A DNA stretch of 32,000 bases, taken from contig NZ_BMZS01000012.1 in NCBI RefSeq assembly GCF_014652915.1, positions 33,231 through 65,230 on the forward strand, written 5' to 3'. The position numbers and the translations under genes were made by a program. Source of the stretch: Thalassobaculum fulvum. Lineage in GTDB: Bacteria > Pseudomonadota > Alphaproteobacteria > Thalassobaculales > Thalassobaculaceae. Positions 14,874 to 32,000 of the stretch are shown here, piece by piece; position 1 is the stretch's first letter, and each line of letters starts with the position of its first letter. A model generated the notes under the pieces. That model was not told the DNA's origin. It saw nothing but the letters and a program-made list of their open reading frames with translations, and ran no database searches.

Positions 14874-16310
14874 TCAGGCATCCGGCGGCCAGTGCTGGGC
14901 CCACGGCGCCAGGATCTCGAACGCGGCCGCCAGGTCGATCAGGCGCTGCTCGTCGAACCAGCGGCCGACGGCATGCAGCCCGGCCGGCAACCCGTCGGGG
15001 CTGAAGCCCATCGGGATGCTGATCGCAGGATGGCCGGTGTGGTTGAAGGTGCCGGTGTAGCCGTACCAGTTCGCCCTGATCGGGCCGGCGACCTCGCCGT
15101 TGATGGTCATCGGCTCGTCCTGCCCGTGGTCGTAGGGCGGCGGCGGGGCGGAGACGGTCGGGGTGACGATCAGGTCGTGGTCGTCGAACAGCGCCTGCAC
15201 CCGGCGGAACAGGCCGGAGCGGATTGCGGGCGCGCCCTGGACGGTCAGCAGGTCCTGGTTCCGGCCCTCCTCCAGCGCCGCCACCAGCGACGGGTCGAGG
15301 CGGTCGCGGTCGGTGTCCAGCAGGTGGTCGAGCCGGGCGCGCTGGTAGGCGCGCATGGCGGCGAACTGCGCCGGCTTGGCCCAGTCGAAGTCGTCCGGTC
15401 CGTCGGCCAGGGTGGCGCCGTGCCGTTCCAGCGTCGCCAGGTGGCCATCCAGCAGCCGCTCGACGTCGCGGTCGACCATGCGGTTGCCCATGCGCCGGAA
15501 CACCAGGATCCGCAGGCCGTCGAGCCGTCGGATCGGGTGGTCGGACACGCCGAACCCGGTTTGCGGTACGGCGATCGACCACGGGTCGTCGTTCCAGGCC
15601 CCGTTCGTCACCGTCAGGCCGGCGGCCAGGTCCGCGGCGGTCCGGCTGGCCAGACCCAGGTTGATGAAGCTGGAGAACAGCTCGACCGCGGTCTCGTTCG
15701 GGATCCGCCCGAGGGTCGGCTTCAGGCCCAGCACCCCGCAGGCGCTGGCCGGGATCCGCGACGACCCGGCGCCGTCGGTGGTGACCGCCAGCGGGCCGAA
15801 GCCCATGGCGACCGCTGCCGCCCCGCCGCCGCTGGAGCCACCGGGCGAGCGCCCGGTGTTCCACGGGTTGCGGGTGTAGCCGTGACGCGGGCTGTTGGTC
15901 AGCGCCTTGTGCCCGAACTCCGGGGTGTTCGACTTGCCGACCAGCACCGCGCCGGCCCGGCGCAGGCGGGCGACCGCCTCGGCGTCGAAATCGGGCACAT
16001 TGCCGGCGAAGGCGTGCGACCCGTAGGCGGTCTCGACGCCCCTGGTCACGACCAGGTCCTTCACCGAGAACGGGACGCCGGCCAGCGGGCCGGGATCGCG
16101 CGCCGAGGCGACAGCGGCGTCGACCGCCTTGGCGGCGGCGAGCGCACCGTCACGGTCGACCGTGGCGTAGGCGTTCACCACCCGGTCGGCCCGTTCGATC
16201 CGGTCGAGCACGGCGGTCGCGACCTCGACCGCGGAGAGCTGTCGGGTCCGGACGGCGTCGGCGACCGCGGTCGCCGGCCATTGCCAGATTTCGGGCGTCG
16301 AATGTGGCAT
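14874..16310 (-). CDS. Amidase (amidase-signature family)
   Basis: 478 aa. Gly/Ser-rich signature GRSPGGSSGGGAAAVA and the upstream conserved Lys region (FSVKDLV). Convergent with the preceding gene across a 6-nt gap. Confidence 0.9.
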   Translation of the reverse strand: MPHSTPEIWQWPATAVADAVRTRQLSAVEVATAVLDRIERADRVVNAYATVDRDGALAAAKAVDAAVASARDPGPLAGVPFSVKDLVVTRGVETAYGSHAFAGNVPDFDAEAVARLRRAGAVLVGKSNTPEFGHKALTNSPRHGYTRNPWNTGRSPGGSSGGGAAAVAMGFGPLAVTTDGAGSSRIPASACGVLGLKPTLGRIPNETAVELFSSFINLGLASRTAADLAAGLTVTNGAWNDDPWSIAVPQTGFGVSDHPIRRLDGLRILVFRRMGNRMVDRDVERLLDGHLATLERHGATLADGPDDFDWAKPAQFAAMRAYQRARLDHLLDTDRDRLDPSLVAALEEGRNQDLLTVQGAPAIRSGLFRRVQALFDDHDLIVTPTVSAPPPPYDHGQDEPMTINGEVAGPIRANWYGYTGTFNHTGHPAISIPMGFSPDGLPAGLHAVGRWFDEQRLIDLAAAFEILAPWAQHWPPDA

Positions 16311-16508
16311 GTCGGACTCCTCCCTCCGGTCGTTGTTGCTCGCGACCTCGGCCCGATTCCGGCCGGGCGTCGACCGAGTATTCCCGGAACCGGGCTGCCT
16401 GTCGCGTAGAGTAGGGCCGGCGGCGCGGGGTGCGCGAATCTGGTCGACGGAGCGGGGGTCGGCCGGGTACGCCTACGGATGCCCGTCCGTGGATCGTCGA
16501 GGACCCCC

Positions 16509-17840
16509 ATGAGCTACGTGTTCAACCGCGATACCCGTGCCGACATGCCGATCGTCGTCCGCGGCGACGGGATCTGGATCGAGGATTCCACGGGCAAGCG
16601 CTACATCGACGCGTCCGGCGGGGCGGCGGTGTCCTGCCTCGGCCACAGCCACCAGCGGGTGATCGACGCGGTGCGCGAGCAGGTCGGCAAGATCGCCTTC
16701 GCCCACACCGGGGCGTTCTCCAGCGAGCCGGCCGAGGCCCTCGCCGAGGCGGTGGTGACCAGCGCGCCGGGCCGGATGGCCAAGGCGCTGTTCGTGAGCG
16801 GCGGCTCGGAGGCGAGCGAGGCGGCGATCAAGCTGGCCCGGCAGTACCACGTCGAGCGCGGCGAGCCGGGCCGGCACCGGATCATCGCCCGCCGCCAGAG
16901 CTATCACGGCAACACCCTCGGCGCGCTGTCGGCCAGCGGCAACATGGCGCGCCGGGCGCTGTACCAGCCCTACATGCAGGACTGGAGCCACATCGCGCCC
17001 TGCTATCCGTATCGCGGCCGCAGCCACGACGAGACCGAGGAGGAGTACGGCCTGCGGGTCGCCGACGAACTCGAGACCGAGATCGAGCGGGTCGGCGCCG
17101 AGACCGTGTCGGCCTTCATCCTGGAGCCGGTGGTCGGCGCCACCCTCGGGGCGGTCGCGGCGGTGCCGGGCTATCTCGCCCGGGTGCGCGAGATCTGCGA
17201 CCGCCACGGCGTGCTGCTGATCTTCGACGAGGTGATGTGCGGCATGGGCCGGACCGGCACCCTGTTCGCCTCGGAGCACGACGGCGTCGTGGCCGACATC
17301 TACACCGCCGCCAAGGGCCTGGGCGCCGGCTACCAGGCGATCGGCGCGGTGATCGCGTCGGAGAAGGTGTACGGCGCGATCCACGACGGTAGCGGCTTCT
17401 TCCAGCACGGCCACACCTACATGGGCCACCCGGTCGCCTGCGCGGCGGCGCTGGCGGTGCAGACCGCGATCCGCGAGGAGGGGCTGCTGGGGCGCGTGCA
17501 GGCCGGTGGGGCCAAGCTGCGCACCATGCTGGAGGAGCGCTTCGGCAACGACGCCCATGTCGGCGAGATCCGCGGGCGCGGCTACTTCCTGGCCATGGAG
17601 CTGGTGGCCGACCGGGCGACCAAGCAGCCGTTCGACCCGTCCCTGGCGATCCACAACCGGGTCAAGAAGGCGGCGATGGACCTCGGCCTGATCTGCTACC
17701 CGATGGGCGGGGTGATCGACGGCAAGTCCGGCGACCACGTGCTTGTCGCCCCGCCGTTCATCACCAGCGACGACGAGCTGGCGGAGATCGTCTCGCGGGT
17801 CGGGCAGGCGGTCGACCGGGCGATCGCGTCGACCCGCTGA
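16509..17840 (+). CDS. Class III (omega-) PLP aminotransferase
   Basis: 443 aa from ATG 16509; ATG 16479 is possible. Motifs SGGSEASEAAIKLARQY, FDEVMCGMGRTG, and the PLP-Lys context YTAAKGLGAGY. Confidence 0.9.
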   Translation: MSYVFNRDTRADMPIVVRGDGIWIEDSTGKRYIDASGGAAVSCLGHSHQRVIDAVREQVGKIAFAHTGAFSSEPAEALAEAVVTSAPGRMAKALFVSGGSEASEAAIKLARQYHVERGEPGRHRIIARRQSYHGNTLGALSASGNMARRALYQPYMQDWSHIAPCYPYRGRSHDETEEEYGLRVADELETEIERVGAETVSAFILEPVVGATLGAVAAVPGYLARVREICDRHGVLLIFDEVMCGMGRTGTLFASEHDGVVADIYTAAKGLGAGYQAIGAVIASEKVYGAIHDGSGFFQHGHTYMGHPVACAAALAVQTAIREEGLLGRVQAGGAKLRTMLEERFGNDAHVGEIRGRGYFLAMELVADRATKQPFDPSLAIHNRVKKAAMDLGLICYPMGGVIDGKSGDHVLVAPPFITSDDELAEIVSRVGQAVDRAIASTR

Positions 17841-17967
17841 CCTCGGGCCGCTGAGTTCGCGCTGCCATCGTACCGTCACGGTTCGTGCGGCATTGTGCGG
17901 CCGTTTCGTCGACGGTCACGGTGTGGTTTGATCCTGGTCGCGGGAGACGCTGGACGTGGGAGATGCC

Positions 17968-19089
17968 ATGGCCAATAGCGAACCGGTCGTCCTGGACGTC
18001 GATGGCCTGTCGGCGCTGTTCGAGGCGCTGAAGCGGCGCGGCTACCGGGTGGTCGGCCCGACCGTCCGTGACAAGGCGATCGTCTACGACGACCTCGACA
18101 GCCCAGCCGATCTCCCCGAGGGCTGGACTGACGAGCAGGACGGCGGGCACTACCGCCTGCTGCGCCGCGACGACCGGGCGCTGTTCGGCTACGTGGTCGG
18201 GCCGCAATCCTGGAGGCAGTTCCTGCACGCCCCGCGGGTCGAGCTGTGGCACGGCACCAAGAGCGGCGACGGCGTGCGGATCGAGGCCGATCCGATGCCG
18301 TCCGAGCCGCTGGCGTTCGTCGGCGTGCGGGCCTGCGAGCTGCAGGCGATCGCGGTGCAGGACCGGGTGCTGATGGGCGGTGCCTATGTCGACCCGCACT
18401 ACCGGGCACGGCGCGAGGGCGCGTTCCTGGTCGCGGTCAACTGCGGCCGGGCCGGCGGCACCTGCTTCTGCGTGTCGATGGAGACCGGGCCGAAGGCGAC
18501 GGCCGGCTTCGACCTGTCGCTGACCGAGCTGCTGGACGGCGACGGCCACCGCTTCCTGGTCGAGACCGGCACGGACACGGGTCAGGCGGTCCTGGCGGAG
18601 CTGCCGCACCGGCCGGCGGCGGCCGCCGAGATTGCCGCCGCCGCGGCCGTCGTCGAGCGCGCGGCGGCGTCGATGGGCCGCGAGATGCGGTCGGACGACG
18701 TCCGCGACCTGCTGATGCGCAACCTGGAGCACAGGCGCTGGGACGACGTCGCGGATCGCTGCCTTAGCTGCGGCAACTGCACCATGGTTTGCCCGACCTG
18801 CTTCTGCACGACGGTCGAGGAGACCAGCGGCCTGACCGGCGCGGAGAGCGCGCGGTCGCGGCGCTGGGATTCCTGCTTCACCATGGATTTCTCCTACATC
18901 CACGGCGGCAGCGTGCGGTCGAGCACCAGATCGCGCTATCGCCAGTGGATGACCCACAAGCTGGCGACCTGGCACGACCAGTTCGACATGTCGGGCTGCG
19001 TCGGCTGCGGGCGCTGCATCACCTGGTGTCCCGTCGGGATCGACATCACCGAAGAGGTGCGTGCGATCCGGGGCGATGGACCCAACTGA
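17968..19089 (+). CDS. hyhB: Group 3b-type [NiFe]-hydrogenase beta subunit (AsrA-like 4Fe-4S protein)
   Basis: 373 aa from ATG 17968 with GGGAG upstream. Two ferredoxin-type motifs, [16 protein letters not shown] and [14 protein letters not shown]. Size and position match the beta subunit of sulfhydrogenase-type enzymes. Confidence 0.85.
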
Positions 19090-19101
19090 GGGAGGACGGT
19101 C

Positions 19102-19569
19102 ATGGAAGCCCACGGTCTCGATCGCATCCTGCGCGAGCACCGGTTCTTCGCCGGGTTGGACGAAGAGTCCTGCGGCGTGGTCTGCGGCTGCGCCAAGAAC
19201 GTCCGCTTCGAGGCCGGTGAGTACCTGTTCCGGGCCGGCGAGCCGGCGGACCAGTTCTACCTGCTGCGGCACGGCCGGGTGGCGCTGGAGGTGGCGGCCC
19301 CCGGGCGCGGCGCGGTGACGTTCCAGACCGTCGGCGAGGGCGAGATCGTCGGCGTCTCCTGGCTGATCCCGCCTTACCGCTGGACCTACGACGCCAAGGC
19401 GGTCGAGCTGGTCCGGGCGATCGCCATGGACGCCGCGTGCCTGCGCCGGAAGTGCGAGGCCGACCACGATCTCGGCTACGAGATGATGAAGCGGTTCGTC
19501 CCGGTGCTGGTCGATCGCCTGCAGAACACCCGGCTGCAGATCCTCGACGTCTACGGTCCCAACGGCTGA
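19102..19569 (+). CDS. Stand-alone cyclic-nucleotide-binding (CAP/FNR effector-type) domain protein with no output domain
   Basis: 155 aa. Beta-roll pattern FFAGLDEE...[31 protein letters not shown]...GEGEIVG...[11 protein letters not shown]. It lies 12 nt after hyhB and 7 nt before hyhG. Confidence 0.8.
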
Positions 19570-19576
19570 CGCCGCC

Positions 19577-20407
19577 GTGACGATCTTCGACCCGATGCTG
19601 CCGCGTATCGCCCGCACCCGCCGTCGCCGGCGCGACGGGCCGGCGGTGTGGACGCTCGACATCGAGATGGCGGAGGGCGGGCCGCCGGCGTTCGCACCGG
19701 GCCAGTTCAACATGCTGACGGCCTTCGGCGTCGGCGAGGTGCCGATCAGCGTCAGCGGCGATCCGGCCGACCCGAGCCGCCTGGTGCACACCATCCGCGC
19801 GGTCGGTCCGGCCTCGACCGCGCTGGCCCGGCTCGGACCCGGCGAGGTGCTGGGCCTGCGCGGGCCGTTCGGGGTCGGCTGGCCGATGGAGCAGGCGGTC
19901 GGCCGCGACGTGGTGGTGATCGCCGGCGGCCTCGGCCTGGCACCGCTGCGCCCGGCGCTCTATCGGCTGCTGGCCGAGCGCGAGCGCTACGGCAGCATCG
20001 TGCTGCTGTACGGCACCCGCAGCCCGGAGGAGATCCTGTTCCGTCGCGAGCTCGAGTCCTGGCGGCGCCGGCTGGACATCGACATCGAGGTGACGGTCGA
20101 CCACGCGGTCGGCGACTGGCGCGGCCATGTCGGCGTGGTGACCACGCTGATCCCGCGCTCGGCCTTCGAGCCGTCTAGCACTGTCGCCCTGGTGTGCGGG
20201 CCGGAGATCATGATGCGGTTCGCGATCGCGTCGCTGCAGGATGCCGGGGTCGCCGACGACGCCATCTATCTGTCGATGGAGCGCAACATGAAGTGCGCGG
20301 TCGGGCTGTGCGGGCACTGCCAGATGGGGCCTGTGCTGGTGTGCCGCGACGGGCCGGTCTTCCGGTACGACCGCATCCGGAGCATCCTCGGGGCGAGGGA
20401 GATCTGA
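19577..20407 (+). CDS. hyhG: Group 3b-type [NiFe]-hydrogenase gamma subunit (FAD/NAD(P)-binding, AsrB/PyrK-like, 2Fe-2S)
   Basis: 276 aa with a GTG start. Ferredoxin-reductase-type fold ([17 protein letters not shown]) and a C-terminal cluster motif [20 protein letters not shown]. Confidence 0.85.
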
Positions 20408-20408
20408 C

Positions 20409-21191
20409 GTGGCGGAAACGGCCCGAAAGCCCCGGCTCGGTGTGTGGAAATTCGCATCCTGCGACGGCTGCCAGCTCAGCCTGCTCGACTGCGAGGACGA
20501 GCTGCTGGCGGTCGCCGGCGCCGTCGACATCGCCTACTTCCCGGAGGCGACCCGCGGCGACGTGAAGGGCCGCTACGACCTGGCGCTGGTCGAGGGCTCG
20601 ATCACCACGCCGCACGACGCCGAGCGCATCCGCGACGTGCGCCGCTGGGCCCGCACCCTGGTGACGATCGGCGCCTGCGCCACCGCCGGCGGCATCCAGG
20701 CGCTGCGCAACTTCGCCGACGTCGCCGAGTACGCGGCGGTGGTGTACGCCCGGCCCGACTACATCGACACATTGGCCACCTCGACGCCGATCGCGGAGCA
20801 TGTCCCGGTCGACTTCGAGCTGCGCGGCTGCCCGATTTCCAAGCACCAGCTGGTCGAGGTGATCGCGGCGTTCCTGGCCGGGCGGCGGCCGGTCACCCCG
20901 GCCCACAGCGTGTGCGTCGAGTGCAAGCTGCGCGGCAACGTCTGCGTGACGGTGGCGCACGGCACCCCGTGCCTGGGGCCGGTGACCCATGCCGGCTGCA
21001 ACGCGCTGTGCCCGTCCTACGACCGTGGCTGCTACGGCTGCTACGGCCCGAAGGAGACCCCGAACCCGGCTGCTCTCGGCGACAAGTTGCAGGAACAGGG
21101 CATGGATGCCGACGCGCTGCGGCGGGTCTACCGGACCTTCAACGCCGCCGCACCGGCGTTCCGCGAGGAGAGCGAGCGCCATGGCCCGTAA
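20409..21191 (+). CDS. hyhS: [NiFe]-hydrogenase small (delta) subunit, NuoB/20-kDa-like
   Basis: 260 aa with a GTG start. N-terminal [26 protein letters not shown], and a C-terminal Cys-rich region [12 protein letters not shown]...[24 protein letters not shown]. Confidence 0.9.
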
Positions 21192-22488
21192 GACCATCAA
21201 GGTCGACTACATGGCGCGCGTCGAGGGCGAGGGCGCGCTGAAGGTGGTGGTGCGCGACGGCAAGGTGCAGTCGGCGGCGCTCAGCATCTTCGAACCACCG
21301 CGGTTCTTCGAGGCGCTGCTGCGCGGCCGCGCCTTCAGCGAGGCGCCGGACATCACCGCGCGGATCTGCGGGATCTGCCCGGTCGCCTACCAGATGAGCG
21401 CGGTGCACGCGATGGAGAACGCGCTCGGCGTGGCCGTCGACGGCCCGCTGCGCGACCTCCGCCGGCTGCTGTACTGCGGCGAGTGGATCGAGAGCCACGG
21501 GCTGCACGTCTACATGCTGCACGCGCCGGATTTCCTCGGCTACGACAGCGCGATCCACATGGCCAAGGACCATGGCGACGTGGTGCGCCGCGGCCTCGAC
21601 CTGAAGAAGGTAGGCAACGAGATCCTCACCGCGGTCGGCGGCCGGGAGATCCACCCGATCAACGTCAAGGTCGGCGGGTTCTACAAGGTGCCGCGCAGGC
21701 GCGACCTGCAGCACCTGGCCGAACGATTGAAAGGCGCGCGCGACGCGGCGCTGGAGACCGTGCGCTGGGTGGCCGGCTTCGACATTCCCGACCGCGAGCG
21801 CGACTACACCTTCGTGGCGCTCCGTCATCCGGACGAGTACCCGTTCAACGAGGGACGCATCGTCTCGAACCGCGGCCTGGACATCGCTGCCGCCGAGTAC
21901 GACGCGCATTTCCAGGAGATCCACGTCCGGCACTCGACGGCGCTGCAGTCGCGGATGCGAGCCGACGGCTCGGCCTATCTGGTCGGCCCGCTGGCCCGCT
22001 ACAGCCTGAACTTCGACCGGCTGTCGCCGCTGGCCCGGCAGGCGGCGCGCGAAGCCGGGCTCGGCTCCACCTGCCGCAACCCGTACCAGAGCATCGTGGT
22101 GCGCGCGGTCGAGACCCTGTACGCCTGCGACGAGGCGCTGCGGATCATCGAGAGCTATCGGGAGCCGGATGCGCCGGCAGTCCCGGTCGAGCCGCGTGCC
22201 GCGACCGGCTATGCCGCGACCGGTCATGGGGCGACCGAGGCGCCGCGCGGGTTGCTGTACCACCGCTACCGGCTGGAGGCCGACGGCAGCATCGCCGACG
22301 CCCTGATCGTGCCGCCGACCTCGCAGAACCAGGCGAGCATCGAGGAGGATCTGGCGAGCTACGTGGAGAGCTTCCTGGACCTTCCCGACGAGGCCCTGCA
22401 GCACCGCTGCGAACAGACCGTGCGCAACTACGACCCGTGTATCTCCTGCGCGACCCATTTCCTGCGCCTCGACATGGACCGGGAGTGA
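21181..22488 (+). CDS. hyhL: [NiFe]-hydrogenase large (alpha) subunit, group 3-like
   Basis: 435 aa from ATG 21181, overlapping hyhS by 11 nt. N-terminal Ni-binding motif [10 protein letters not shown] and C-terminal DPCISCATH, followed by the 9-aa cleavable tail FLRLDMDRE. Confidence 0.95.
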
Positions 22489-22492
22489 CGGC

Positions 22493-22966
22493 GTGAGCGG
22501 GCGGCGCATCGTGATAGGCATCGGCAACCCGGACCGGGGCGACGACGGAGTCGGCCGGCTGGTCGCGCGCAGCCTCGATGGCCGGCTGCCGGCCGATGTG
22601 GAGGTCGTCGAGGCGGACGGCGAGGCGACGGCGCTGCTGGCGCACATGGACGGGGCCGAAGCGGCCTATCTGGTCGACGCCTGTGCCTCGGGCGCGGAAC
22701 CGGGCACGGTCCGTCGGTTCGACGCCGCGGCCGCTCCGCTGCCGCAGGCCGCCTTCGGGCTGTCGACCCACGGCTTCGGCCTGGCCGAGGCGATCGAGCT
22801 GGCCCGGGCGCTGCGGCAACTGCCGGCGCGCTGCGTGGTGTATGCGATCGAGGGGGCCGGGTTCGAGACCGGGGCGCCGCTGTCGGATGCGGTTGCCGAG
22901 GCGATCCCGCAGGTCCAGGAACGCCTGTGCTGCGAGATCGAACAGCCGGCCGACGTTGGGAGCTGA
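22493..22966 (+). CDS. Hydrogenase maturation endopeptidase (HycI/HoxW family)
   Basis: 157 aa with a GTG start. Motif IVIGIGNPDRGDDGVGRLVA and a later STHGFGL. Lies immediately after the large subunit. Confidence 0.9.
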   Translation: MSGRRIVIGIGNPDRGDDGVGRLVARSLDGRLPADVEVVEADGEATALLAHMDGAEAAYLVDACASGAEPGTVRRFDAAAAPLPQAAFGLSTHGFGLAEAIELARALRQLPARCVVYAIEGAGFETGAPLSDAVAEAIPQVQERLCCEIEQPADVGS

Positions 22967-22968
22967 CC

Positions 22969-23232
22969 ATGCACGAAGCCTCGCTGATGACCGGCCTGAT
23001 GCGACGGATCGAGGAGGTCGCCGCCGCCGACCGTGCCGTGAAGGTGGTCGGCGTGTCGGTCCGGCTCGGTGCCCTCAGCCACATGTCGGCGGAGCATTTC
23101 ACCGAGCATTTCGAGCAGGCCGCCGCCGGGTCGATCGCCGAGGGCGCGCGGCTGCAGATCGAGCTGTCCGAGGACCAGACGGCGCCCTGGGCGCAGGACA
23201 TCGTGCTCGAGAGCGTCGAGATCGAGACCTGA
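22969..23232 (+). CDS. hypA: HypA-like nickel metallochaperone lacking the Zn-finger domain
   Basis: 87 aa from ATG 22969. N-terminal MHE nickel-binding motif, and collinear with HypA (…VVGVSVRLGALSHMSAEHFTEHFEQAAAGSIAEGARLQIE…). It has no cysteine at all. Confidence 0.7.
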   Translation: MHEASLMTGLMRRIEEVAAADRAVKVVGVSVRLGALSHMSAEHFTEHFEQAAAGSIAEGARLQIELSEDQTAPWAQDIVLESVEIET

Positions 23233-23237
23233 CGGCG

Positions 23238-25553
23238 ATGCCGGCGGCCGGACCCCTGGGGCAGGCACGACCCGGCGAGCGCCGGCGGCTGCGCATGGTG
23301 GTGCGCGGCGCCGTGCAGGGCGTGGGGTTCAGGCCGTTCGTGCATCGCACCGCCAATGCGCTCGGACTCGCCGGCTGGGTGCGCAATACCGCGGCCGGCG
23401 TGGCGATCGAGGCCGAAGGCCCGGCCGACAGGCTTTCGGTCCTGGTCGACACGGTGCTGCACCGGTCGCCGGCACCGGCATCGATCGACGGGGTGGATCT
23501 CGACGAAACAGAGCCTGTGGGCGGCTCGGGCTTCGCGATCCGGGACAGCGAGACCGGGGGTGCGCACGTTGCCCGGGTACTGCCCGACCTTGCGACCTGC
23601 AACGACTGCCTGCGCGAGCTGTTCGACCCGGCCGACCGCCGCCACCGCTACCCGTTCGTCAACTGCACCCGGTGCGGACCGCGTTACAGCATCGTCGAGG
23701 CCGTGCCCTACGATCGGTCGCGCACCAGCATGCACCGGTTCGCGATGTGCCCGGCCTGCCAACGGGAGTACGATGATCCGGCCGACCGCCGATTCCACGC
23801 CGAGCCGAACGCCTGTCCCGGGTGCGGGCCGCGTCTCGACCTGTGGAGCCCCGACGGCACGTCGCTGGCGCGCGACGACGACGCGCTGCAGGCCGCCGCG
23901 GCCGCGATCCGCGCCGGGAAGATCGTCGCGGTCAAGGGGATCGGCGGGTTCCACCTCCTGGTCGACGCCCGCGACGAGGCGGCGGTCCGGCGCTTGCGGG
24001 CCGCGAAGGCCCGTCCGTCCAAGCCGTTCGCGATGATGTTCCCGACCCTGGCGACGGTCCGCGAGGCCTGCCGGCCGGAGGTCGAGGAGGAGCGGCTGCT
24101 CGGCGATCCGGCGCGACCGATCGTGCTGATCCGACGGGCCGCGCAGTCGGGGCTCGCCCGGTCGGTGGCGCCCGACAACCCTCGTCTCGGCGCCCTGCTG
24201 CCGTACGCGCCGCTGCATCACCTGCTGATGCACGATCTCGGCTTCCCGGTGGTCGCGACCAGCGGCAATCGCGGCGACGAGCCGATCGCGACCGACGAGC
24301 ACGATGCGCTGCGGCGGCTGGCCGGGATCGCCGAACTGTTCCTGGTGCACGACCGGCCGATCGTCCGTCCGGTCGACGACTCCGTGGTGCAGGTCATGTG
24401 CGGTCGGCCGCAGGTCCTGCGCCGGGCCCGCGGCCTGGCGCCGAACCCGGTGGTTCACGGCGGCCTGCCGGACGGCATCCTGGCCTTCGGGGCGCATCTG
24501 AAGGCGACCGTCGCGCTGACCGTCGGCGGCAACCTGGTGGCCAGCCAGCATCTCGGCGACCTGGAGACCGGGCCGGCCCGGGACGCCTACCGTCAGGCGC
24601 TCGACGACGTCGCCCGGCTGCACGAGGCCCGGCCGCGGCTGGCGGTCCGCGACGCGCACCCGGACTACGCGTCGTCGCGGGCGGCGGAGGAGGCGGGCGT
24701 GCCGGTCGTGGCGGTGCAGCACCACGTCGCGCATGTCGCCGCCTGCATGGCCGAGCACGGCCTGGCGCCGCCGGTGCTCGGCGTGGCCTGGGACGGCACC
24801 GGGTACGGCCCGGACGGCACGGTGTGGGGCGGGGAGTTCATCCGGATCACCGAGGCCGGCTGGCAGCGGGTCGCGCACCTGCGGCCGTTCCGGTTGCCGG
24901 GCGGCGAGGCGGCGGCGCGCGAGCCGCGGCGCTCGGCGCTCGGCCTGCTGGCCGAGGTCTATGGACGGGGGGCGTTCGGGATGACCCGCCTCGCCGCGGT
25001 CGCAGCGTTTGCGCCGGCCGAGCGCGAGGTCCTGCGAAACGCCCTGGCTCGCGGGCTGAACGCGCCGTGGACCACCAGCGCCGGCCGGCTGTTCGACGGT
25101 TTCGCGGCGCTGTGCGGCCTCGTCCAGCGCGCCAGCTACGAAGGCGAGGCGGCGTCGGCGCTGGAATGGGCGGCCGAGGGCTCGCGGACCGGGCGCAGCT
25201 ACGACATGCCGGTGGTCGAGCGCGGTACGGCGCCGTTGGTGGTGGACTGGGGACCGGCCGTCGTCGCGGCGCTCGCGGACCGGGCGGACGGAATGCCGCC
25301 GGCGGCGGTCTCGGAGGCCCTGCATAACGGTCTGGCGCGGGCGATCGTCGCCGTCGCGGTCCGGCTGGAAGCACAGCGGATCGTGCTGACCGGCGGCTGC
25401 TTCCAGAACCGCTGCCTGACCGAAGCGACGGTCGCCGGGCTGCGCACCGCCAACCGCCAGGTGTTCTGGCATGGCCGGGTGCCGCCGAACGACGGCGGGA
25501 TCGCTGTCGGGCAGGCCGCCTGGGCCGCGTGGCGCCCGAGGAAGGAGGCCTGA
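23238..25553 (+). CDS. hypF: Carbamoyltransferase HypF
   Basis: 771 aa from ATG 23238. Acylphosphatase domain ([14 protein letters not shown]), two Zn-finger pairs (CNDCLREL...CTRCGPRY; CPACQREY...CPGCGPRL), YrdC-like [15 protein letters not shown], and a Kae1-like C-terminus ([11 protein letters not shown]). Confidence 0.95.
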
Positions 25554-25555
25554 CC

Positions 25556-25810
25556 ATGTGCCTGGCGGTTCCCGGCCGGGTTCTCGACGTCGCCGGCGAC
25601 GAGCCGATCCTGCGGGTCGGCCGGGTCGACTTCGGCGGCATCGTCAAGCAGATCAACCTCGCCTTCGTGCCGGAGGCGCAGGTCGGCGACTACGTGCTGG
25701 TGCATGTCGGCTTCGCCATCACGGTGATCGACGAGGCCGAGGCCGAGCGGGTGTTCCGGCACCTGGAGGAGATCGGCGAGCTGGTCGTCGAGGAGGACGG
25801 TGCGGCATGA
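25556..25810 (+). CDS. hypC: Hydrogenase assembly chaperone HypC/HupF
   Basis: 84 aa starting MCLAVPGRV, with the essential N-terminal Cys2. Start derived from the frame of ORF 25529..25810. Confidence 0.9.
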
Positions 25811-26916
25811 GGTTCCGCGACGAGTACCGCGACGCGGCGGCGGCCCGGCGGCTCGCCGACGCCATCGCCCGGACCGCGACCCGGCCCTGGACGCTGATGG
25901 AGGTGTGCGGCGGTCAGACCCATGCCATCGTCCGGTTCGGCATCGACGAGCTGCTGCCCGACGGCCTGTCGCTGGTGCACGGCCCCGGCTGCCCGGTTTG
26001 CGTCACCCCGGTCGAGTACGTCGACAAGGCGATCGAGATCGCCGGCCGGCCGGGCGTCGTGCTGTGCTCGTTCGGCGACATGCTGCGGGTGCCGGGCAGC
26101 GCCGGCGACCTGCTGGCCGCCAAGTCCCGTGGTGCCGACGTCCGGGTAGTGTACTCGCCGGCCGACGCGGTCGCGATCGCGCGGGCCGAGCCGGAGCGCG
26201 AGGTGGTGTTCTTCGCCGTCGGCTTCGAGACCACGGCCCCGGCGAACGCGATGGCGGCGGTGCTGGCCCGGCGGGAGGGCCTGGGGAACTTCTCGATGCT
26301 GGTGTCGCACGTCCTGGTGCCGCCGGGGATGCGGGCGATCCTGGAGGCGCCGGGCAACCGGATCGACGGCTTCCTGGCCGCCGGCCACGTGTGCACTGTG
26401 ATGGGGTTCGAGGAGTACGAGCCGATCGCCGCGTCCTACCGGGTTCCGGTCGTGGTCACCGGCTTCGAGCCGGTCGACATCCTGGAAGGCGTCTACTGGT
26501 GCGTGCGCCAGCTCGAGGCGGGACGCGCCGAGGTCGAGAACCAGTACGCCCGGGCGGTCCGGCGCGAGGGCAACCGGGCGGCAATGGCGACCATGCGCGA
26601 GGTGTTCCGCGTCGTGCCGCGGCGCTGGCGCGGCATCGGCGACATCGCCGACAGCGGTCTCGGTCTCGCCGAGGCCTATGCCGGGTTCGACGCCGAGCGC
26701 CGGTTCGGCCCGGTCCTGCTGGAGGCGGAGGCCGCCGGCGAGTGCATCAGCGGTGCGGTGCTGCGCGGCGAGCGCCGGCCGACCGACTGCCCGGCGTTCG
26801 GCACGCGCTGCACGCCCGAGCATCCGCTGGGCGTCACCATGGTGTCGTCGGAGGGCGCGTGCGCCGCCTATTACCGTTACCGCGGGGCGGCCGCGGTCGC
26901 CGGGGGGCGGCGATGA
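25807..26916 (+). CDS. hypD: Hydrogenase maturation factor HypD
   Basis: 369 aa from ATG 25807 with an ATGA overlap with hypC. Motifs [25 protein letters not shown]. Confidence 0.95.
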
Positions 26917-27962
26917 GCGGTCCGGAGTTCCCGATGTCGTGCCCGTTGCCGACAGGAGACGGCGAGACCGTGCAGATGGCGCATGGCGGCGGCGGCCGGG
27001 CGATGGCGCGGCTGCTCGACACCGTCATCCGGCCGGCCTTCGACGATGCCGAGCTCGACCGGCGTCACGACGGCGCGGTGGTCGAGGTCGGCGGGCCGGC
27101 GGCGTTCACCACCGACAGCTACGTCGTCCGCCCGCTGTTCTTCCCCGGCGGCGACATCGGCACCCTGGCGGTCTACGGCACGGTCAACGACCTGGCGATG
27201 TGCGGCGCCCGGCCGCTGTACCTAAGCGTCGGGCTGATCCTGGAGGAAGGGCTGCCGCTCGACACCCTGCGGCGGGCCGTCGCCTCGATGCGCGACGCCG
27301 CGCGCGCGGCCGGGGTGCGGCTGGTCACCGGCGACACCAAGGTGGTCGACCGCGGCAAGGCCGACGGCCTGTTCGTCAACACCGCCGGCATCGGCCGGGT
27401 GGTGGCGCCGGCGCCGGTCGGGCCGGCGGCGGTGCGGTCGGGCGACGCGGTGATCCTCAGCGGCGACATCGGCCGGCACGGCATGGCGGTGATGGCGGCG
27501 CGCGAGAACCTTGGGTTCGAGACCGTGATCGAGAGCGACTGCGCGCCGGTGGCGGCACCGGTCCTGACCCTGCTGGAGGCAGGGGTCGCGGTCCACTGCC
27601 TGCGTGACCTGACCCGCGGCGGCCTGGCCAGCGCCGCCGTCGAGATCGCCGAGACCGCCGGCCTGGCGCTGGCGTTCGACGAGGCCGCCGTGCCGGTCCG
27701 CGACGACGTGGCGGCGGCGTGCGAGCTGCTGGGCCTCGACCCGCTCCATGTCGCCAACGAGGGGCGGTTCCTGGCCATCGTCGACCCCGCGGACGTCGAC
27801 AGGGCGGTCGCCATACTGCGGGACCATCCGGTGTCGGCGGGGGCGGTGGCGATCGGCGAGGTGCGCGACGGCCCGGCCGGGCGGGTGACCTGCCGTGGTC
27901 CGCTCGGCGTCGACCGGGTGGTCGACATGCTGAGCGGCGAACAGCTGCCTCGCATCTGCTGA
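26913..27962 (+). CDS. hypE: Hydrogenase maturation factor HypE (carbamoyl dehydratase)
   Basis: 349 aa from ATG 26913 with an ATGA overlap with hypD. PurM-like fold and the diagnostic C-terminal PRIC. Confidence 0.95.
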
Positions 27963-28007
27963 GCCACGTGCCAAGATGCGGGCAGCCTGCAGCGGGAGGA
28001 CGGCGGC

Positions 28008-29372
28008 ATGACGGTCAGTCTCGGCTTCTACGGCGGGGTCGGCACGGTCACCGGCTCCAAGTTCCTGGTCGATGCGCCGGGTCGCCGGATCCTGGTCGAC
28101 TGCGGGCTGTTTCATGGCTTCAAGCCGTTGCGCGGCCGCAATTGGGAGCCGTTGCCGTTCGAGCCGGTATCGCTCGACGCAGTGGTGCTGACCCATGCGC
28201 ATCTGAGTCATTCCGGGCATCTGCCGATCCTGGTGCGCGACGGGTTTCGCGGTCCGGTCTACGCGACGTCGGCGACCCGGGACCTGTGCGAGATCCTGCT
28301 GCGCGACACCGGCTACCTGCAGGAGCGCGACGCCGAGTATGCCAACCGGCAGGGCTTCTCGCGGCACCACCCGGCACTGCCGCTGTTCTCCGAGGCCGAC
28401 GCGATGGCGGCGCTCGAGCGCTTCGTGCCGGTGCCGTTCGGCGAACCCTGGGCACTGGACGGCGGGGCGACGCTGCACTTCCGGCCGTCCGGCCATCTCC
28501 TGGGATCGGCCTCGGTCGCGCTCGACGTCGCCGGCGCCAGCCTCCTGTTTTCCGGCGATCTCGGCCGCTGGAACAGCGCGACCATGCTCGACCCGGCGAC
28601 GGTGGAGCGCGCCGACGTCCTGGTGGTCGAGTCCACATACGGCGACCGCATCCACGAGCCGGGAGACCCGGAGGACCGGCTGGTCGAGATCATCAACCGG
28701 GTTGTCGGCCGCGGCGGCACCATCCTGATCCCCGATTTCTCCGCCGGCCGCGCCCAGACCATGCTGTTCCACCTGTACCGGATGAAGGCGGAGGGCCGGA
28801 TCCCGGACGTCCCGGTCGTCGTCGACAGCCCGCGGGCGATCAACGCCGGGGAGATCTTCGGGCGGCACCTGGCCGACCACCGCCTGACCGCCGCCGAGTG
28901 CCGGGCCGCCTGCAATCTCGCGACCTATGTCCGTGACGACGAGGCGTCCCGGGCGCTCGACTCCGACCCGACGCCGAAGCTGGTGATGTCGGCCAGCCCG
29001 ATGGCGATGGACGGCCGGGTCCTGCACCACCTGACGCACCTGGCCCCGGACCCGCGCAACGCCATCCTGTTCACCGGCTACCAGGCCGGCGGCACGCGCG
29101 GCGCCAAGCTGATCGCCGGCGCCGACGCGGTGAAGATCCACGGGCGGATGGTGCCGGTGCGCGCCGAGGTCGCCAACCTGCATTGGCTGTCGTCGCACGC
29201 CGACGCCGACGAGATCATGCGGTGGCTCGACGGGTTCCGGGAGCCGCCGCGCCGGACCTTCGTGGTGCATGGCGAGGGCGACGCCCCGGCCGCGCTTCGG
29301 GCGCGGATCGCGGAGGATCTCGGCTGGTCGTGCGAGATCCCCGAAGACGGCAGCGTCGTGGAGCTGGGCTGA
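28008..29372 (+). CDS. Metallo-beta-lactamase-fold, beta-CASP-family protein (RNase J/CPSF-like hydrolase)
   Basis: 454 aa with GGGAGGA upstream. MBL motifs ILVDCG, THAHLSHSG, SGHLLGSA, LFSGDLG. Beta-CASP-type VVESTYG and the C-terminal LSSHAD. Confidence 0.85.
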   Translation: MTVSLGFYGGVGTVTGSKFLVDAPGRRILVDCGLFHGFKPLRGRNWEPLPFEPVSLDAVVLTHAHLSHSGHLPILVRDGFRGPVYATSATRDLCEILLRDTGYLQERDAEYANRQGFSRHHPALPLFSEADAMAALERFVPVPFGEPWALDGGATLHFRPSGHLLGSASVALDVAGASLLFSGDLGRWNSATMLDPATVERADVLVVESTYGDRIHEPGDPEDRLVEIINRVVGRGGTILIPDFSAGRAQTMLFHLYRMKAEGRIPDVPVVVDSPRAINAGEIFGRHLADHRLTAAECRAACNLATYVRDDEASRALDSDPTPKLVMSASPMAMDGRVLHHLTHLAPDPRNAILFTGYQAGGTRGAKLIAGADAVKIHGRMVPVRAEVANLHWLSSHADADEIMRWLDGFREPPRRTFVVHGEGDAPAALRARIAEDLGWSCEIPEDGSVVELG

Positions 29373-29375
29373 GCC

Positions 29376-30908
29376 ATGACCGGACCGTCGGAACTTCCGG
29401 GGGCAGGGTCGCACCGCGGGCTGCGGGTCCGGCGCCTCGGCATCGACACCCACCAGGAAGCGGTCGTCTACATGCGGCAGGACTGCCCGGTCTGCCGGGC
29501 CGAGGGCTTCCTGACCCACCCGCGGGTCCGGGTGCGCAGCCGGACGGCGTCGGCCATTGCGACGATCAACCAGGTCGTCAGCGGGCTGCTGCGGCCGCTC
29601 GAGGTCGGGCTGTCGGAGTCGGCCTGGCAGCGGCTCGGGGTCGCCGAGGGCGACGAGGTGTTCTTCAGCCATCCCGCACCGCTCGACTCGCTCAGCCTGC
29701 TGCGCGCCAAGATCTACGGCAGCCGGTTCGGGGACCGGGCGCTGGCGACCATCATCGGCGACATCGGTGCCGGCCGGTATTCCGACATCCATCTGGCGTC
29801 GTTCATAACGGCGTGTGCGGCGCGCGGGCTGGACGACCGCGAGATGCTGGAACTGACCCGTGCGATGGTCGCCTCCGGCGACCGGCTCGACTGGGGCGCC
29901 GGGCCGGTGGTCGACAAGCACTGCGTCGGCGGCCTGCCCGGCAACCGGACCACGCCGATCGTGGTGTCGATCGTCGCCGCCTGCGGCCTCACCATGCCGA
30001 AGACCTCGTCGCGCGCCATCACCTCGCCGGCCGGGACCGCCGACACCATGGAGACCATGGCTCCGGTCGACCTGGACCTGCCCGACATGCGGCGCGTGGT
30101 CGAGCAGGAGGGCGGTTGCGTGGTGTGGGGCGGTGCGGTCCGTCTCAGCCCGATCGACGACACCCTGATCCGGGTGGAGCGGGCGCTCGACATCGACAGC
30201 GAGGGACAGCTGGTCGCCTCGGTGCTGTCCAAGAAGGCGGCGGCCGGCTCGACCCATCTGGTCCTGGACCTGCCGGTCGGTCCGACGGCGAAGGTGCGGA
30301 GCGACGTCGACGCGGCGCGGCTGGAGGCCGCACTGACGCTCGTCGGGACCAGCCTCGGCATGCGGGTACGGTGCATCCGGACCGACGGCCGCCAGCCGGT
30401 CGGGCGCGGCATCGGCCCGGCGCTGGAGGCGCGCGACGTGCTGGCGGTCCTGCAGGACCGGGCCGACGCGCCTGCCGACCTGCGCGACCGGGCGCTGGCG
30501 CTGGCCGGGGCGCTGCTGGAACTCGGCGGGGCCGCCGCTGCTGGGGCCGGCGCCGCTGCCGCCGGTGCGGTGCTGGCGGACGGCAGGGCCTGGCGCAAGT
30601 TCCAGGCGATCTGCGAGGCCCAGGGCGGGATGCGGATGCCGCCGGTCGCCGCCTACCGTCATCCGGTGACGGCGGCGAAGGGCGGCCGCGTGACCGGCAT
30701 CGACAACCGGGCGATCGCCAAGGCGGCGAAGCTCGCCGGGGCGCCGTCGGCGAAAGCTGCCGGTCTCGACCTGCACGTCCGGCTGAACCAGACGGTGGCG
30801 GCCGGCGAGCCATTGTTCACCCTGCATGCGGAGTCCCAGGGCGAGCTCGACTACGCCCTGGACTACGTGTCGACCCATCCGCTCGCGGTGCGGGTCGAGG
30901 AGGCCTGA
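29376..30908 (+). CDS. Thymidine-phosphorylase-family protein, long form (AMP-phosphorylase-like)
   Basis: 510 aa starting 3 nt after the MBL gene. Core motif DKHCVGGLPGNRTTPIVVSIVAACGLTMPKTSSRAITSPAGTADTME. Carries an N-terminal extension of ~85-100 aa relative to DeoA-type enzymes. Confidence 0.85.
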   Translation: MTGPSELPGAGSHRGLRVRRLGIDTHQEAVVYMRQDCPVCRAEGFLTHPRVRVRSRTASAIATINQVVSGLLRPLEVGLSESAWQRLGVAEGDEVFFSHPAPLDSLSLLRAKIYGSRFGDRALATIIGDIGAGRYSDIHLASFITACAARGLDDREMLELTRAMVASGDRLDWGAGPVVDKHCVGGLPGNRTTPIVVSIVAACGLTMPKTSSRAITSPAGTADTMETMAPVDLDLPDMRRVVEQEGGCVVWGGAVRLSPIDDTLIRVERALDIDSEGQLVASVLSKKAAAGSTHLVLDLPVGPTAKVRSDVDAARLEAALTLVGTSLGMRVRCIRTDGRQPVGRGIGPALEARDVLAVLQDRADAPADLRDRALALAGALLELGGAAAAGAGAAAAGAVLADGRAWRKFQAICEAQGGMRMPPVAAYRHPVTAAKGGRVTGIDNRAIAKAAKLAGAPSAKAAGLDLHVRLNQTVAAGEPLFTLHAESQGELDYALDYVSTHPLAVRVEEA

Positions 30909-31828
30909 TGCGACCGCTCGTCCTGCCGCTGCCGGGCAACGAGGATTTGGCGGCCGATCTCACGGCCCGGCTCGGCGCCGAGGCGGGCGCGCTGCAGGTC
31001 CGCCGGTTCCCGGACGGCGAGACCTATGTGCGGCTGCTGACCGAGGTGGCCGGAAGACAGGTGGTCCTGGTCTGCACTCTGGACCGGCCCGACGACCGCC
31101 TGCTGCCGCTGGTGTTCGCGGCGGCGACGGCGCGCGAGCTGGGGGCCGAGAGGGTCGGACTGGTGTGCCCGTATCTCGGCTACATGCGCCAGGACAAGCG
31201 GTTCCAGCCGGGCGAGGCGATCAGCTCGGCGATCTTCGCCCGACTGCTCGACCCCTGGATCGACTGGCTGGTCACGGTCGATCCGCATCTGCACCGCCGG
31301 TCTTCGCTGTCCGAGATCTACGCGGCTCCCGCCGACGTCCTGCATGCCGCGCCGGCGATCGCCGCGTGGATCCGCCGGGAGGTGCCGCGGCCGCTGCTGG
31401 TCGGGCCGGACAGCGAGAGCGAGCAATGGGTGTCGGCGGTCGCCCGGGACGCCGCCGCTTCGTATGTGGTGCTCGAGAAGACCCGCCGCGGCGACCGCGA
31501 CGTCGAGGTCTCGGTCCCGGAGGTCGTGCGCTGGCGGGACCACACGCCGGTCCTGGTCGACGACATCGTCTCGACCGGCCGGACGATGATCGAGACCATC
31601 GGCCACCTGAGGCGCGCCGGCCTGGCGGCACCGGTCTGCATCGGCGTCCACGCCGTCTTCGCGGGCGACGCCTTCCGCGAGATCGCCGCCGCGGGCGCCG
31701 GGCGGACGGTCACCTGCAACTCGATCCGACACCCTTCGAACGCCATCGATCTGGGGCCGCTGCTGGCGGACGCGGTCCGGTCGCGTCTGGCGTCGGGGCA
31801 GTCGCCGAAGAGGCCCTCGCGGCCCTGA
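30908..31828 (+). CDS. prs: Ribose-phosphate pyrophosphokinase family protein
   Basis: 306 aa from ATG 30908 with a TGATG overlap with the upstream stop. Motifs RFPDGETYVRL, PYLGYMRQDKRF, VTVDPHLH, and the PRPP/ribose-P loop VLVDDIVSTGRTM. Confidence 0.85.
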   Translation: MRPLVLPLPGNEDLAADLTARLGAEAGALQVRRFPDGETYVRLLTEVAGRQVVLVCTLDRPDDRLLPLVFAAATARELGAERVGLVCPYLGYMRQDKRFQPGEAISSAIFARLLDPWIDWLVTVDPHLHRRSSLSEIYAAPADVLHAAPAIAAWIRREVPRPLLVGPDSESEQWVSAVARDAAASYVVLEKTRRGDRDVEVSVPEVVRWRDHTPVLVDDIVSTGRTMIETIGHLRRAGLAAPVCIGVHAVFAGDAFREIAAAGAGRTVTCNSIRHPSNAIDLGPLLADAVRSRLASGQSPKRPSRP

Positions 31829-31900
31829 TCGACCCGTGCCGGCCGCGGCGGGCGGCGGGTTGCTCAACCTTGACAGGCGGGGCTAAGGTCCCACTTGGTC

Positions 31901-32000
31901 ATGATGCGATCGACAGAAACCAGCGATCTGCTCACCGAAACGCCCCTGCACCTGATCGATGGCGTCGTAGAGGGCGGGGTCGACCTGCGGGTGTTCCGCC
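31901..32000 (+). CDS. Possible 5' end of an unidentified CDS (strand ambiguous)
   Basis: ATGATG at 31901 opens a frame to the window end (MMRSTETSDLLTETPLHLIDGVVEGGVDLRVFR). Its GC3>GC1>GC2 pattern is coding-like. The exact reverse-complement frame (31883-31999, ending in TAG) is also open, so strand and reality are uncertain. Confidence 0.3.
   Translation, partial: MMRSTETSDLLTETPLHLIDGVVEGGVDLRVFR

Follow-up and report, generated by a model that had tools for sequence, protein, structure and literature searches.

What do a beta-CASP hydrolase, an AMP-phosphorylase-like enzyme and a phosphoribosyl pyrophosphate (PRPP) synthase (Prs) do together when their genes are packed into one block, and do they belong with the hydrogenase maturation genes that they follow? 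This question is raised by a stretch of 32,000 nucleotides from Thalassobaculum fulvum (contig NZ_BMZS01000012.1, positions 33,231 to 65,230), the whole of which is called the window below, and in which three co-directional genes of the + strand, here called the triad, occupy positions 28008-29372, 29376-30908 and 30908-31828 as open reading frames (ORFs) ORF1, ORF2 and ORF3. The family of each protein was already known, and so was the operon, as a microoxia-induced and FixK2-dependent unit described without comment on its function. New in the present work are the wide distribution and mobility of the operon, the composition of its core, in which an AMP-phosphorylase-like enzyme of archaeal type is partnered by a Prs of its own and not by RuBisCO, the local character of the hydrogenase link, and the atypical beta-CASP partner of this clade. 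With a probability that we put at roughly one half, the triad would be a module by which cells short of energy recycle nucleotides and ribose, combining phosphorolysis of nucleoside monophosphates (NMPs) to ribose-1,5-bisphosphate (R15P) with PRPP synthesis.

Layout of the three genes

ORF1 starts 45 nt after the end of hypE at 27962, and the spacer between them (27963-28007, + strand) carries a Shine-Dalgarno-like sequence, GGGAGGA, at 27994-28000, 7 nt before the ATG of ORF1. The product of ORF1 (454 amino acids) is a hydrolase with metallo-beta-lactamase (MBL), beta-CASP and RMMBL domains, of the TTHA0252 ribonuclease type. After a 3-nt gap (GCC) follows ORF2 (510 amino acids), which encodes an AMP/NMP-phosphorylase-like protein of the thymidine phosphorylase (TP) superfamily, and its stop codon TGA (30906-30908) has one base in common with the ATG of ORF3 (30908-30910) in the sequence TGATG. 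ORF3, ahead of whose ATG GAGGAGG is found at 30897-30903, encodes a ribose-phosphate diphosphokinase, i.e., PRPP synthase, of the PRK07199 subfamily (306 amino acids). The phosphorylase and the PRPP synthase are probably co-translated. The coordinates, the 45-nt spacing, the 3-nt gap and the overlap are exactly those given in an earlier note on this DNA, whose three family assignments also stand in comparisons with Pfam, NCBIfam, PDB and Foldseek.

The G+C content of the window is 71%. The triad nevertheless consists of real genes and not of chance ORFs in such DNA, since the G+C content at third codon positions (GC3) is 0.92 for both ORF1 and ORF2, the Pfam and NCBIfam matches are strong, and synteny is kept across phyla. 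A promoter and terminator scan of positions 16000-32000 gave no terminator-like or promoter-like site in the interval between hypE and ORF1 and no convincing promoter or terminator site 3' of ORF3.

Recurrence and mobility of the operon

Two surveys have been used. In the first, one genome per species was searched with an alignment of ORF2 relatives as the seed and the other triad genes were placed by tblastn within 10 kb, which gave 80 loci; the second, reciprocal survey took the Prs family as its seed, covered metagenomes and gave 74 evaluable loci. In 61 of the 80 loci the phosphorylase gene is directly followed by the Prs gene on the same strand, and in 71 the two are at most 10 kb apart, while the phosphorylase gene lies directly upstream of Prs in 64 of the 74 metagenome loci. 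The beta-CASP gene is found directly upstream of the phosphorylase gene on the same strand in 41 of the 80 loci and anywhere in the locus in 50. All three genes are present in 45 loci, 31 of which keep the exact order MBL-TP-Prs, and the median gap is 23 nt from TP to Prs and 54 nt from MBL to TP. In several relatives the stops and starts of the triad overlap while the surrounding genes, as annotated with Pfam, differ.

The sources of these loci are Alpha-, Beta- and Gammaproteobacteria together with metagenome-assembled genomes (MAGs) labelled Bacteroidota, Planctomycetota, Acidobacteriota and Gemmatimonadota, and the phosphorylase gene was also found on 126 plasmids, 49 of which are conjugative. 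The triad thus recurs as a unit across many phyla, above all as the phosphorylase-Prs pair, and non-recurrence in other genomes, which had been named as a possible refutation, is not what was found. The triad is one copy of an autonomous bacterial operon that is widespread and horizontally mobile, and the phosphorylase-Prs pair is its invariant core. Homology firmly supports an enzyme of the NMP-phosphorylase type and a PRPP synthase, and these two are almost always inherited together.

The AMP-phosphorylase-like enzyme

The product of ORF2, which is 100% identical to a database protein of Thalassobaculum fulvum named "putative thymidine phosphorylase", is composed of an extra N-terminal domain, a TP core and a PYNP_C domain. 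It passed the NCBIfam models NF003338 (683 bits, cut-off 434) and TIGR02645 (593 bits, cut-off 434.6) and failed the classical TP/PyNP models TIGR02643 and TIGR02644 (153 and 192 bits against cut-offs of 571 and 409), as well as NF004490 and NF004747 (210 and 146 bits against 269 and 559). The best PDB match is 4ga5, the AMP phosphorylase of Thermococcus kodakarensis (2e-104; 39-44% identity); identity to solved TP/PyNP structures is 26-29% and to TrpD 14-20%. No deviation was found at the 115 positions that are conserved at the level of at least 95% among 79 orthologs.

The earlier note had taken ORF2 for the long TP form that phosphorolyses NMPs in archaea, and structural comparison bears this out: in Foldseek, the AF2 model (pLDDT, the predicted local distance difference test score, of 88) superposes on full-length 4ga5_A with TM scores of 0.90/0.93 over 500 columns and a root-mean-square deviation of 2.4, and the extra N-terminal domain of archaeal AMP phosphorylase (about 85 residues) is matched by the model. 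Against TP/PyNP the TM scores fall to 0.67-0.72, and against TrpD to about 0.5. All NMPs and dNMPs are substrates of the archaeal enzyme, which yields base and R15P from them by phosphorolysis, according to a passage of PMC8376864 that cites Sato 2007 and Aono 2012.

The pair C37-x-x-C40 (window 29484-29495), which belongs to the N-terminal domain of ORF2, is invariant in an alignment of 21 family sequences and falls in a helix of the predicted structure; it could serve as a redox site or bind a metal.

The pairing with Prs raises the possibility that the enzyme works in the synthetic direction, with Prs supplying PRPP, or R15P derived from PRPP, and the TP-fold enzyme ribosylating a base, like its fold relative anthranilate phosphoribosyltransferase, so that a nucleotide or a similar compound is formed and NMPs are not degraded. 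In principle the reaction of AMP phosphorylase can be reversed, and the tight Prs/TP-fold pairing (61/80 and 64/74) is the pattern of a dedicated PRPP supply beside its user. TrpD shares the fold with ORF2 (Foldseek 1e-12 to 8e-14, TM about 0.5/0.75), and there is a weak family match of ORF2 to TIGR01245 (2e-10). However, ORF2 is, by the TM scores and identities given above, far closer to AMP phosphorylase than to TrpD, and no candidate genes for the biosynthesis of an acceptor base are recurrent beside the pair. We therefore regard synthesis as an unlikely role.

The PRPP synthase

ORF3 passed the NCBIfam models NF005537 (PRK07199; 436 bits, cut-off 322) and TIGR01251 (187 bits, cut-off 113), and its nearest PDB entry is 1u9y (ribose-phosphate pyrophosphokinase, 3e-40), the class III PRPP synthase of Methanocaldococcus jannaschii. 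Motifs with known roles in Prs enzymes are FxDGE, RQD(K/R), the His of DxH, the K-x-R loop and DDxxxT, the ribose-5-phosphate loop. Those conserved in the present family are FPDGE, YMRQDK, DPHLHR, GPDxESxQW, KxRxGD and DDIxS (DDIVS in ORF3); the Prs motifs are all present in ORF3 and align with 1u9y, and their conservation among 65 orthologs is at least 80-95%. ORF3 deviates at only one of the 51 positions conserved at the level of at least 95%. Judged from these likenesses, it is a class-III-like PRPP synthase, closest to the archaeal class III enzymes.

A Gly-to-Arg replacement in the ribose-phosphate loop of ORF3 (STGRT) was considered as a signature of bisphosphate use and was rejected, because this position is not conserved in the family. 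In two MAG loci (L002, 11491-12402; L026, 11509-12402), the Prs-like frame has an in-frame stop, which could be an assembly error or could mark a pseudogene.

The beta-CASP partner

ORF1 matches the Pfam domains Beta-Casp, RMMBL and Lactamase_B (5.9e-31 for Beta-Casp, 2e-16 and 1.3e-10 for the other two), and its nearest PDB entry is 2dkf (TTHA0252 of Thermus thermophilus, 2.8e-79), followed by Cas14, archaeal CPSF and CPSF-73. MBL motif 2 of ORF1 (residues 63-68, window 28194-28211) reads HAHLSH, with Ser67, against the consensus HxHxDH. The Asp of this consensus, in TTHA0252 a ligand of the second zinc (Zn2), is present in 46 of 46 aligned ORF1 orthologs and also in the loci L081-L089, L091 and L093, and the Ser of HAHLSH is fixed in L090 and L094, the two relatives that have the hyp link. 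ORF1 as a whole deviates at 10 of the 96 positions conserved at the level of at least 95%, against a median of 1 for orthologs, and all ten variant residues recur in L090.

ORF1 as a decaying pseudogene was considered and rejected: its frame is intact, the variant residues are present in close relatives, and the ratio of nonsynonymous to synonymous substitution (dN/dS) between the window and L090 is 0.19, near the values of hypE (0.20) and ORF3 (0.17); that of ORF2 is 0.06. Because of this ratio and the presence of the same residues in relatives, the variant is judged to be maintained under purifying selection and not to be decaying.

Low-oxygen control

In Bradyrhizobium diazoefficiens, a symbiont of soybean, the genes bll3117 (TP family), bll3116 (Prs) and bll3115 (MBL) are raised in microoxia at both mRNA and protein levels (PMC6515984) and form a predicted single operon, whose expression requires FixK2 and which carries a box for this regulator at -74 (PMC9104804). 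The low-oxygen connection suggested in the earlier note therefore exists, in that this operon, a direct target of the low-oxygen regulator FixK2, is induced in microoxia.

Proposed function and the evidence against it

The recycling module that we propose would work as follows. A ribonuclease (RNase) of the ORF1 type, a TTHA0252-type beta-CASP enzyme that joins the phosphorylase-Prs core in about half of the cases, would release 5'-NMPs from RNA; AMP produced by adenylate kinase would be an alternative source. The phosphorylase would then convert NMP and Pi to free base and R15P, which would remove AMP and other NMPs while both phosphate esters are kept. Prs would make PRPP, by which bases and ribose could be re-used, or ribose could be sent to pentose-phosphate catabolism. 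Each of these three activities is assigned by homology. R15P could be linked to the Prs step in one of three ways: a phosphatase or a mutase might act in between, the Prs homolog might take the bisphosphate directly, or AMP, as a product of Prs, might be the substrate of the phosphorylase. The module would thus serve nucleotide and ribose recycling and the control of the adenylate pool in growth arrest or energy limitation, e.g., at low oxygen.

Several points weigh against this proposal. The canonical substrate of Prs is ribose-5-phosphate and not the bisphosphate, so that the phosphorolysis and Prs steps are not obviously consecutive. On the equivalog model TIGR03327 (AMP_phos), ORF2 scores 469 bits, below the cut-off of 535. 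The beta-CASP gene is absent in 30 of the 80 species loci, 4 of which are too short upstream to tell. RNase activity of ORF1 as a two-zinc nuclease is doubtful in this clade, because of the Ser at the Zn2-ligand Asp and the nine other departures from conserved residues, and the first step, from RNA to NMP, is weakened for this genome by that doubt. Neither R15P isomerase nor RuBisCO is among the families that recur in 6 or more of the 80 loci, and none of the ORFs within these loci bears a RuBisCO signature. The proposal also gives no account of the copper-type P1B ATPase, which is the commonest neighbour of the triad (34 of the 80 loci). In the searchable literature we found no assay of a bacterial protein from any of the three families, AMP-phosphorylase-like proteins and the PRK07199 subfamily included, and searches for a characterised bacterial enzyme or a named pathway for the triad gave only the expression work on Bradyrhizobium.

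Low-oxygen control, moreover, is shown in one organism only, and for the window it is no more than plausible. The window holds no exact match to the FNR-type box TTGA-N6-TCAA, and its five matches with two mismatches all lie away from the operon; elsewhere, only 2 of 78 operon upstream regions have a box, which is close to the background in the same loci, and one of these two belongs to a Xanthobacteraceae MAG. An FNR box as a general signature of the operon, beyond the Bradyrhizobium lineage, was thus rejected.

The dispensability of the beta-CASP gene, together with its atypical form in the window, is also consistent with a narrower role as a valve for adenylate energy charge. The phosphorylase would clear AMP when ATP falls, as the phosphorolytic counterpart of the AMP nucleosidase Amn, and Prs would rebuild PRPP for the re-capture of adenine on recovery, RNA decay being outside the core function. 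PPK2 and phosphate-handling genes (PhoU_div, PHO4, CYTH-CHAD) are nearby in some loci, and PPK2 can rephosphorylate AMP and ADP from polyphosphate; the induction of the B. diazoefficiens operon under microoxia (PMC6515984) fits as well. However, the archaeal homolog is not AMP-specific and prefers CMP or GMP in some preparations, according to a passage of PMC8376864. Such a valve, which overlaps the recycling module rather than excluding it, seems to us unlikely as the main function.

A bolder variant, which we consider decidedly improbable, would make the phosphorylase-Prs pair an ATP-sparing shunt, of a kind not described in bacteria, from any NMP to PRPP or ATP in hypoxia, with Prs using R15P directly or running in reverse and the CxxC pair acting as a redox switch. 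If this were true, hypoxic cells would spend less energy in turning RNA-derived nucleotides into PRPP or ATP, the CxxC of the phosphorylase N-terminal domain would confine activity to reducing, low-oxygen conditions, and a PRK07199-type Prs homolog with invariant DPHLHR and GPDxESxQW would take R15P straight to PRPP.

AMP/NMP phosphorylase and R15P metabolism are viewed as archaeal, with candidate phyla in addition, and as tied to type III RuBisCO. The triad points to an uncharacterised route of nucleotide and ribose phosphates for cells whose respiration is failing, with a bearing on the hypoxic persistence of rhizobia and opportunistic Burkholderiales. Nothing found so far violates expectation, and the enzymology is the point of specialist interest.

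Hydrogenase genes upstream of the triad

As the earlier note had described, a group-3b-type NiFe hydrogenase with hycI and hypFCDE precedes the triad, and all of the following genes are on the + strand. The Fer4 beta subunit of the hydrogenase (17956-19089), the gamma subunit (19577-20407), the small subunit (20409-21191) and the NiFe large subunit (21190-22488), for which the sulfhydrogenase ShyA/HydA is the best match, are followed by hycI (22493-22966), hypF (about 23238-25553), hypC (25529-25810), hypD (25807-26916) and hypE (26913-27962). Between the beta and gamma subunit genes lies an ORF (19102-19569) for a protein of 155 amino acids that consists of a cyclic-nucleotide-binding domain alone; no DNA-binding domain and no NCBIfam match were found in it. 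A gap of about 270 nt (22967-23237) separates hycI from the most likely start of hypF, and the ORFs scanned in the hyh-hyp run include neither hypA nor hypB. The sequence TTGATCCTGGTCGC at 17927-17940, some 20-30 nt ahead of the first hydrogenase gene, contains one perfect FNR/FixK half-site and a poor second half; it is probably not significant, and it is nearer to the start codon than a standard class II promoter would allow.

The linkage of the triad to hyh and hyp genes to which the earlier note pointed is not conserved. Hydrogenase subunits and HypF were matched in none of the 80 species loci, i.e., within 10 kb of the phosphorylase gene, and HypE only in L024, about 6.5 kb off and on the opposite strand. 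Relatives with an ORF2 81-82% identical to that of the window have the triad amid transporters or unrelated genes with no hydrogenase link. The arrangement of hypE, spacer and triad is kept in L090, with 95.7% nucleotide identity to the window over 5.1 kb, and in L094, with ORF1-ORF3 91-94% identical in amino acids, which is also the only Prs-seeded metagenome locus with hyp genes. Because it is shared by these two alone and is missing from the 80 loci and from the 81-82% relatives, the hyp adjacency is a recent, clade-specific arrangement and not a property of the module.

The same distribution bears on the idea that the triad is an accessory of the hydrogenase or its maturation, e.g., by handling nucleotides from HypF or HypE. 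Such a role is favoured by the short distance of 45 nt from hypE, in which no terminator-like site was found, and by the junction kept in two close relatives; yet hydrogenase subunits and HypF are in 0 of 80 loci, HypE is in one on the opposite strand, the 81-82% ORF2 relatives carry the triad in unrelated contexts, and L094 stands alone among the metagenome loci. An accessory role is largely refuted by this distribution, and we hold it to be very improbable.

Read-through from the hyh-hyp transcript into the triad is most likely, as the simplest expectation, since hypE and ORF1 are 45 nt apart and no terminator-like site lies between them. The strong Shine-Dalgarno sequence before ORF1 and the conservation of the hypE-ORF1 junction in L090 and L094 also support co-transcription with hyp. 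If the operon is read through in this way, it would share the expression conditions of the hydrogenase without having a role in its maturation. The adjacency to the hydrogenase is here a local arrangement and not a general rule, and is a caution against over-interpretation.

Neighbouring genes in other loci

Neighbours have been tallied over the 80 loci for families recurring in at least 6 loci, after removal of antisense shadow ORFs; several conserved clusters of supposed neighbour ORFs were rejected as antisense shadows of real genes in DNA of high G+C content. Besides the copper-type P1B ATPase, which is often accompanied by MerR, ICMT, YHS or DUF2933 genes, the recurrent families are an ICMT-like methyltransferase (19 loci), a major facilitator superfamily (MFS) transporter (13), DUF6629 (12), a very divergent phosphoketolase-like protein (11), a MerR regulator and archaeal type II GAPDH (10 each), acetate kinase (8), and PPK2 and a UbiB-like kinase (7 each). 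The phosphoketolase-like protein, GAPDH, acetate kinase and PPK2 fit a theme of energy, pentose-phosphate and stress metabolism.

The phosphoketolase-like protein scores 135-154 bits against cut-offs of 777-1518, and its substrate may differ from that of normal phosphoketolase. It is annotated as "xylulose 5-phosphate 3-epimerase" (L089, 5269-7638, on the Agrobacterium plasmid pAtCFBP6623a; L033, 6205-8634), and its gene lies either between Prs and MBL-TP or directly 5' of the triad. Plasmids of Agrobacterium and Rhizobium have the order ATPase-Prs-phosphoketolase-like-MBL-TP.

On the Acidovorax plasmid p1-T1 (L088, 863-18257), the triad is part of a long co-directional array running from PPK2 and the ATPase through GAPDH; the Betaproteobacterial array of this kind, for which L048 (16011-17066) may be cited beside L088, begins with PPK2, the copper-type P1B ATPase, MFS, LemA, two TPM proteins and the triad, and continues with a trypsin-like peptidase, VTT, DUF6629, a methyltransferase, a dehydrogenase, a UbiB-like kinase and archaeal type II GAPDH.

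Plasmid location and variable genomic contexts are also what might be expected of an anti-phage defence or a phage counter-defence that depletes or reconstitutes nucleotides, and Prs-like and nucleotide-cleaving enzymes do serve in some systems of both kinds. However, the three proteins gave no PADLOC match at E <= 0.01, a search of viral contigs (IMG/VR, 2.9 million contigs) gave only one partial match, and the neighbours are genes of metabolism and metal homeostasis, not of defence. A defence or phage role was rejected on the PADLOC and viral-contig results, and we give it hardly any credence.

Comparison with known systems

In the C-P lyase pathway, the MBL-fold phosphodiesterase PhnP makes R15P and the kinase PhnN converts it to PRPP. 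As in the triad, an MBL-fold hydrolase is thus grouped with an enzyme that forms PRPP around an R15P intermediate, which for the triad is implied; the likeness is one of analogy only, since PhnP does not belong to the beta-CASP enzymes and PhnN is no homolog of Prs but a P-loop kinase. Among the recurrent neighbour families of the 80 loci there were no phn genes.

With the beta-CASP ribonucleases (TTHA0252, RNase J, aCPSF, CPSF-73, Cas14), ORF1 shares the set of MBL, Beta-Casp and RMMBL domains, and, like the TTHA0252 type, it has no extra N-terminal domains. It differs from TTHA0252 in the Ser at the Asp of HxHxDH and in nine further substitutions at positions conserved at the level of at least 95%. 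ORF3 shares FPD(G/N)E, PYLxYxRQDK, (D/N)PH, PD, EKTR and DDI(V/I)STG with class III PRPP synthase (1U9Y/1U9Z), from which the PRK07199 subfamily is distinguished by invariants of its own, namely, the DPHLHR insertion, GPDxESxQW and GD after the KxR loop. Unlike class III PRPP synthase, ORF3 is an accessory copy tied to a phosphorylase gene.

The earlier note had named, as an unverified parallel, MBL, TP-like and Prs-like genes in low-oxygen-activated loci of some Burkholderia. The lxa locus of Burkholderia cenocepacia does have an MBL gene, the "metal-dependent RNase" BCAM0300, which is 30-fold up in low oxygen, as well as an FtsH-like peptidase, a cation ATPase, acetate kinase and polyhydroxybutyrate (PHB) genes, according to the main texts and tables of PMC3721108 and PMC4981469; the gene lists given there contain no TP-like or Prs gene. 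Of this parallel only the MBL part is therefore upheld, and the lxa locus, in whose listed genes BCAM0300 is the only member of the three families, was rejected as a home of the triad. BCAM0300 is likened to ORF1 by annotation, as a putative counterpart. The FtsH-like, cation ATPase, acetate kinase and PHB families of lxa also flank the triad in some loci. One marine locus (L083), in which the triad is found with FtsH, an acetoacetyl-CoA-reductase-like protein, thiolase, a cation ATPase, PPK2 and phosphate-handling genes, resembles lxa in gene content.

The operon bll3117-bll3116-bll3115 of B. diazoefficiens, matched to the triad by annotation only, has the same three families in one operon. 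Its order is TP-Prs-MBL and that of the window MBL-TP-Prs, and both orders occur among the surveyed loci; it has a FixK2 box of its own, whereas the triad of the window has no FNR-type box and follows hypE.

The archaeal AMP phosphorylase (DeoA, TK0353; 4GA4/4GA5/4GA6), an enzyme of the pentose bisphosphate, or AMP, pathway, shares its three-part architecture with ORF2, and the core motifs GG(V/L)PGN(K/R)T, PKTSSRAITSxAGTAD, ERALxID and S(K)K are near-identical in the printed alignment. ORF2 differs in being bacterial, mesophilic and under the AMP_phos equivalog cut-off. Its family also has the invariant CxxC of the N-terminal domain, which to our knowledge is absent from archaeal AMP phosphorylase, although the aligned archaeal part begins only at residue 44. 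The partners of archaeal DeoA are R15P isomerase and type III RuBisCO, whereas those of ORF2 are Prs and, often, a beta-CASP RNase.

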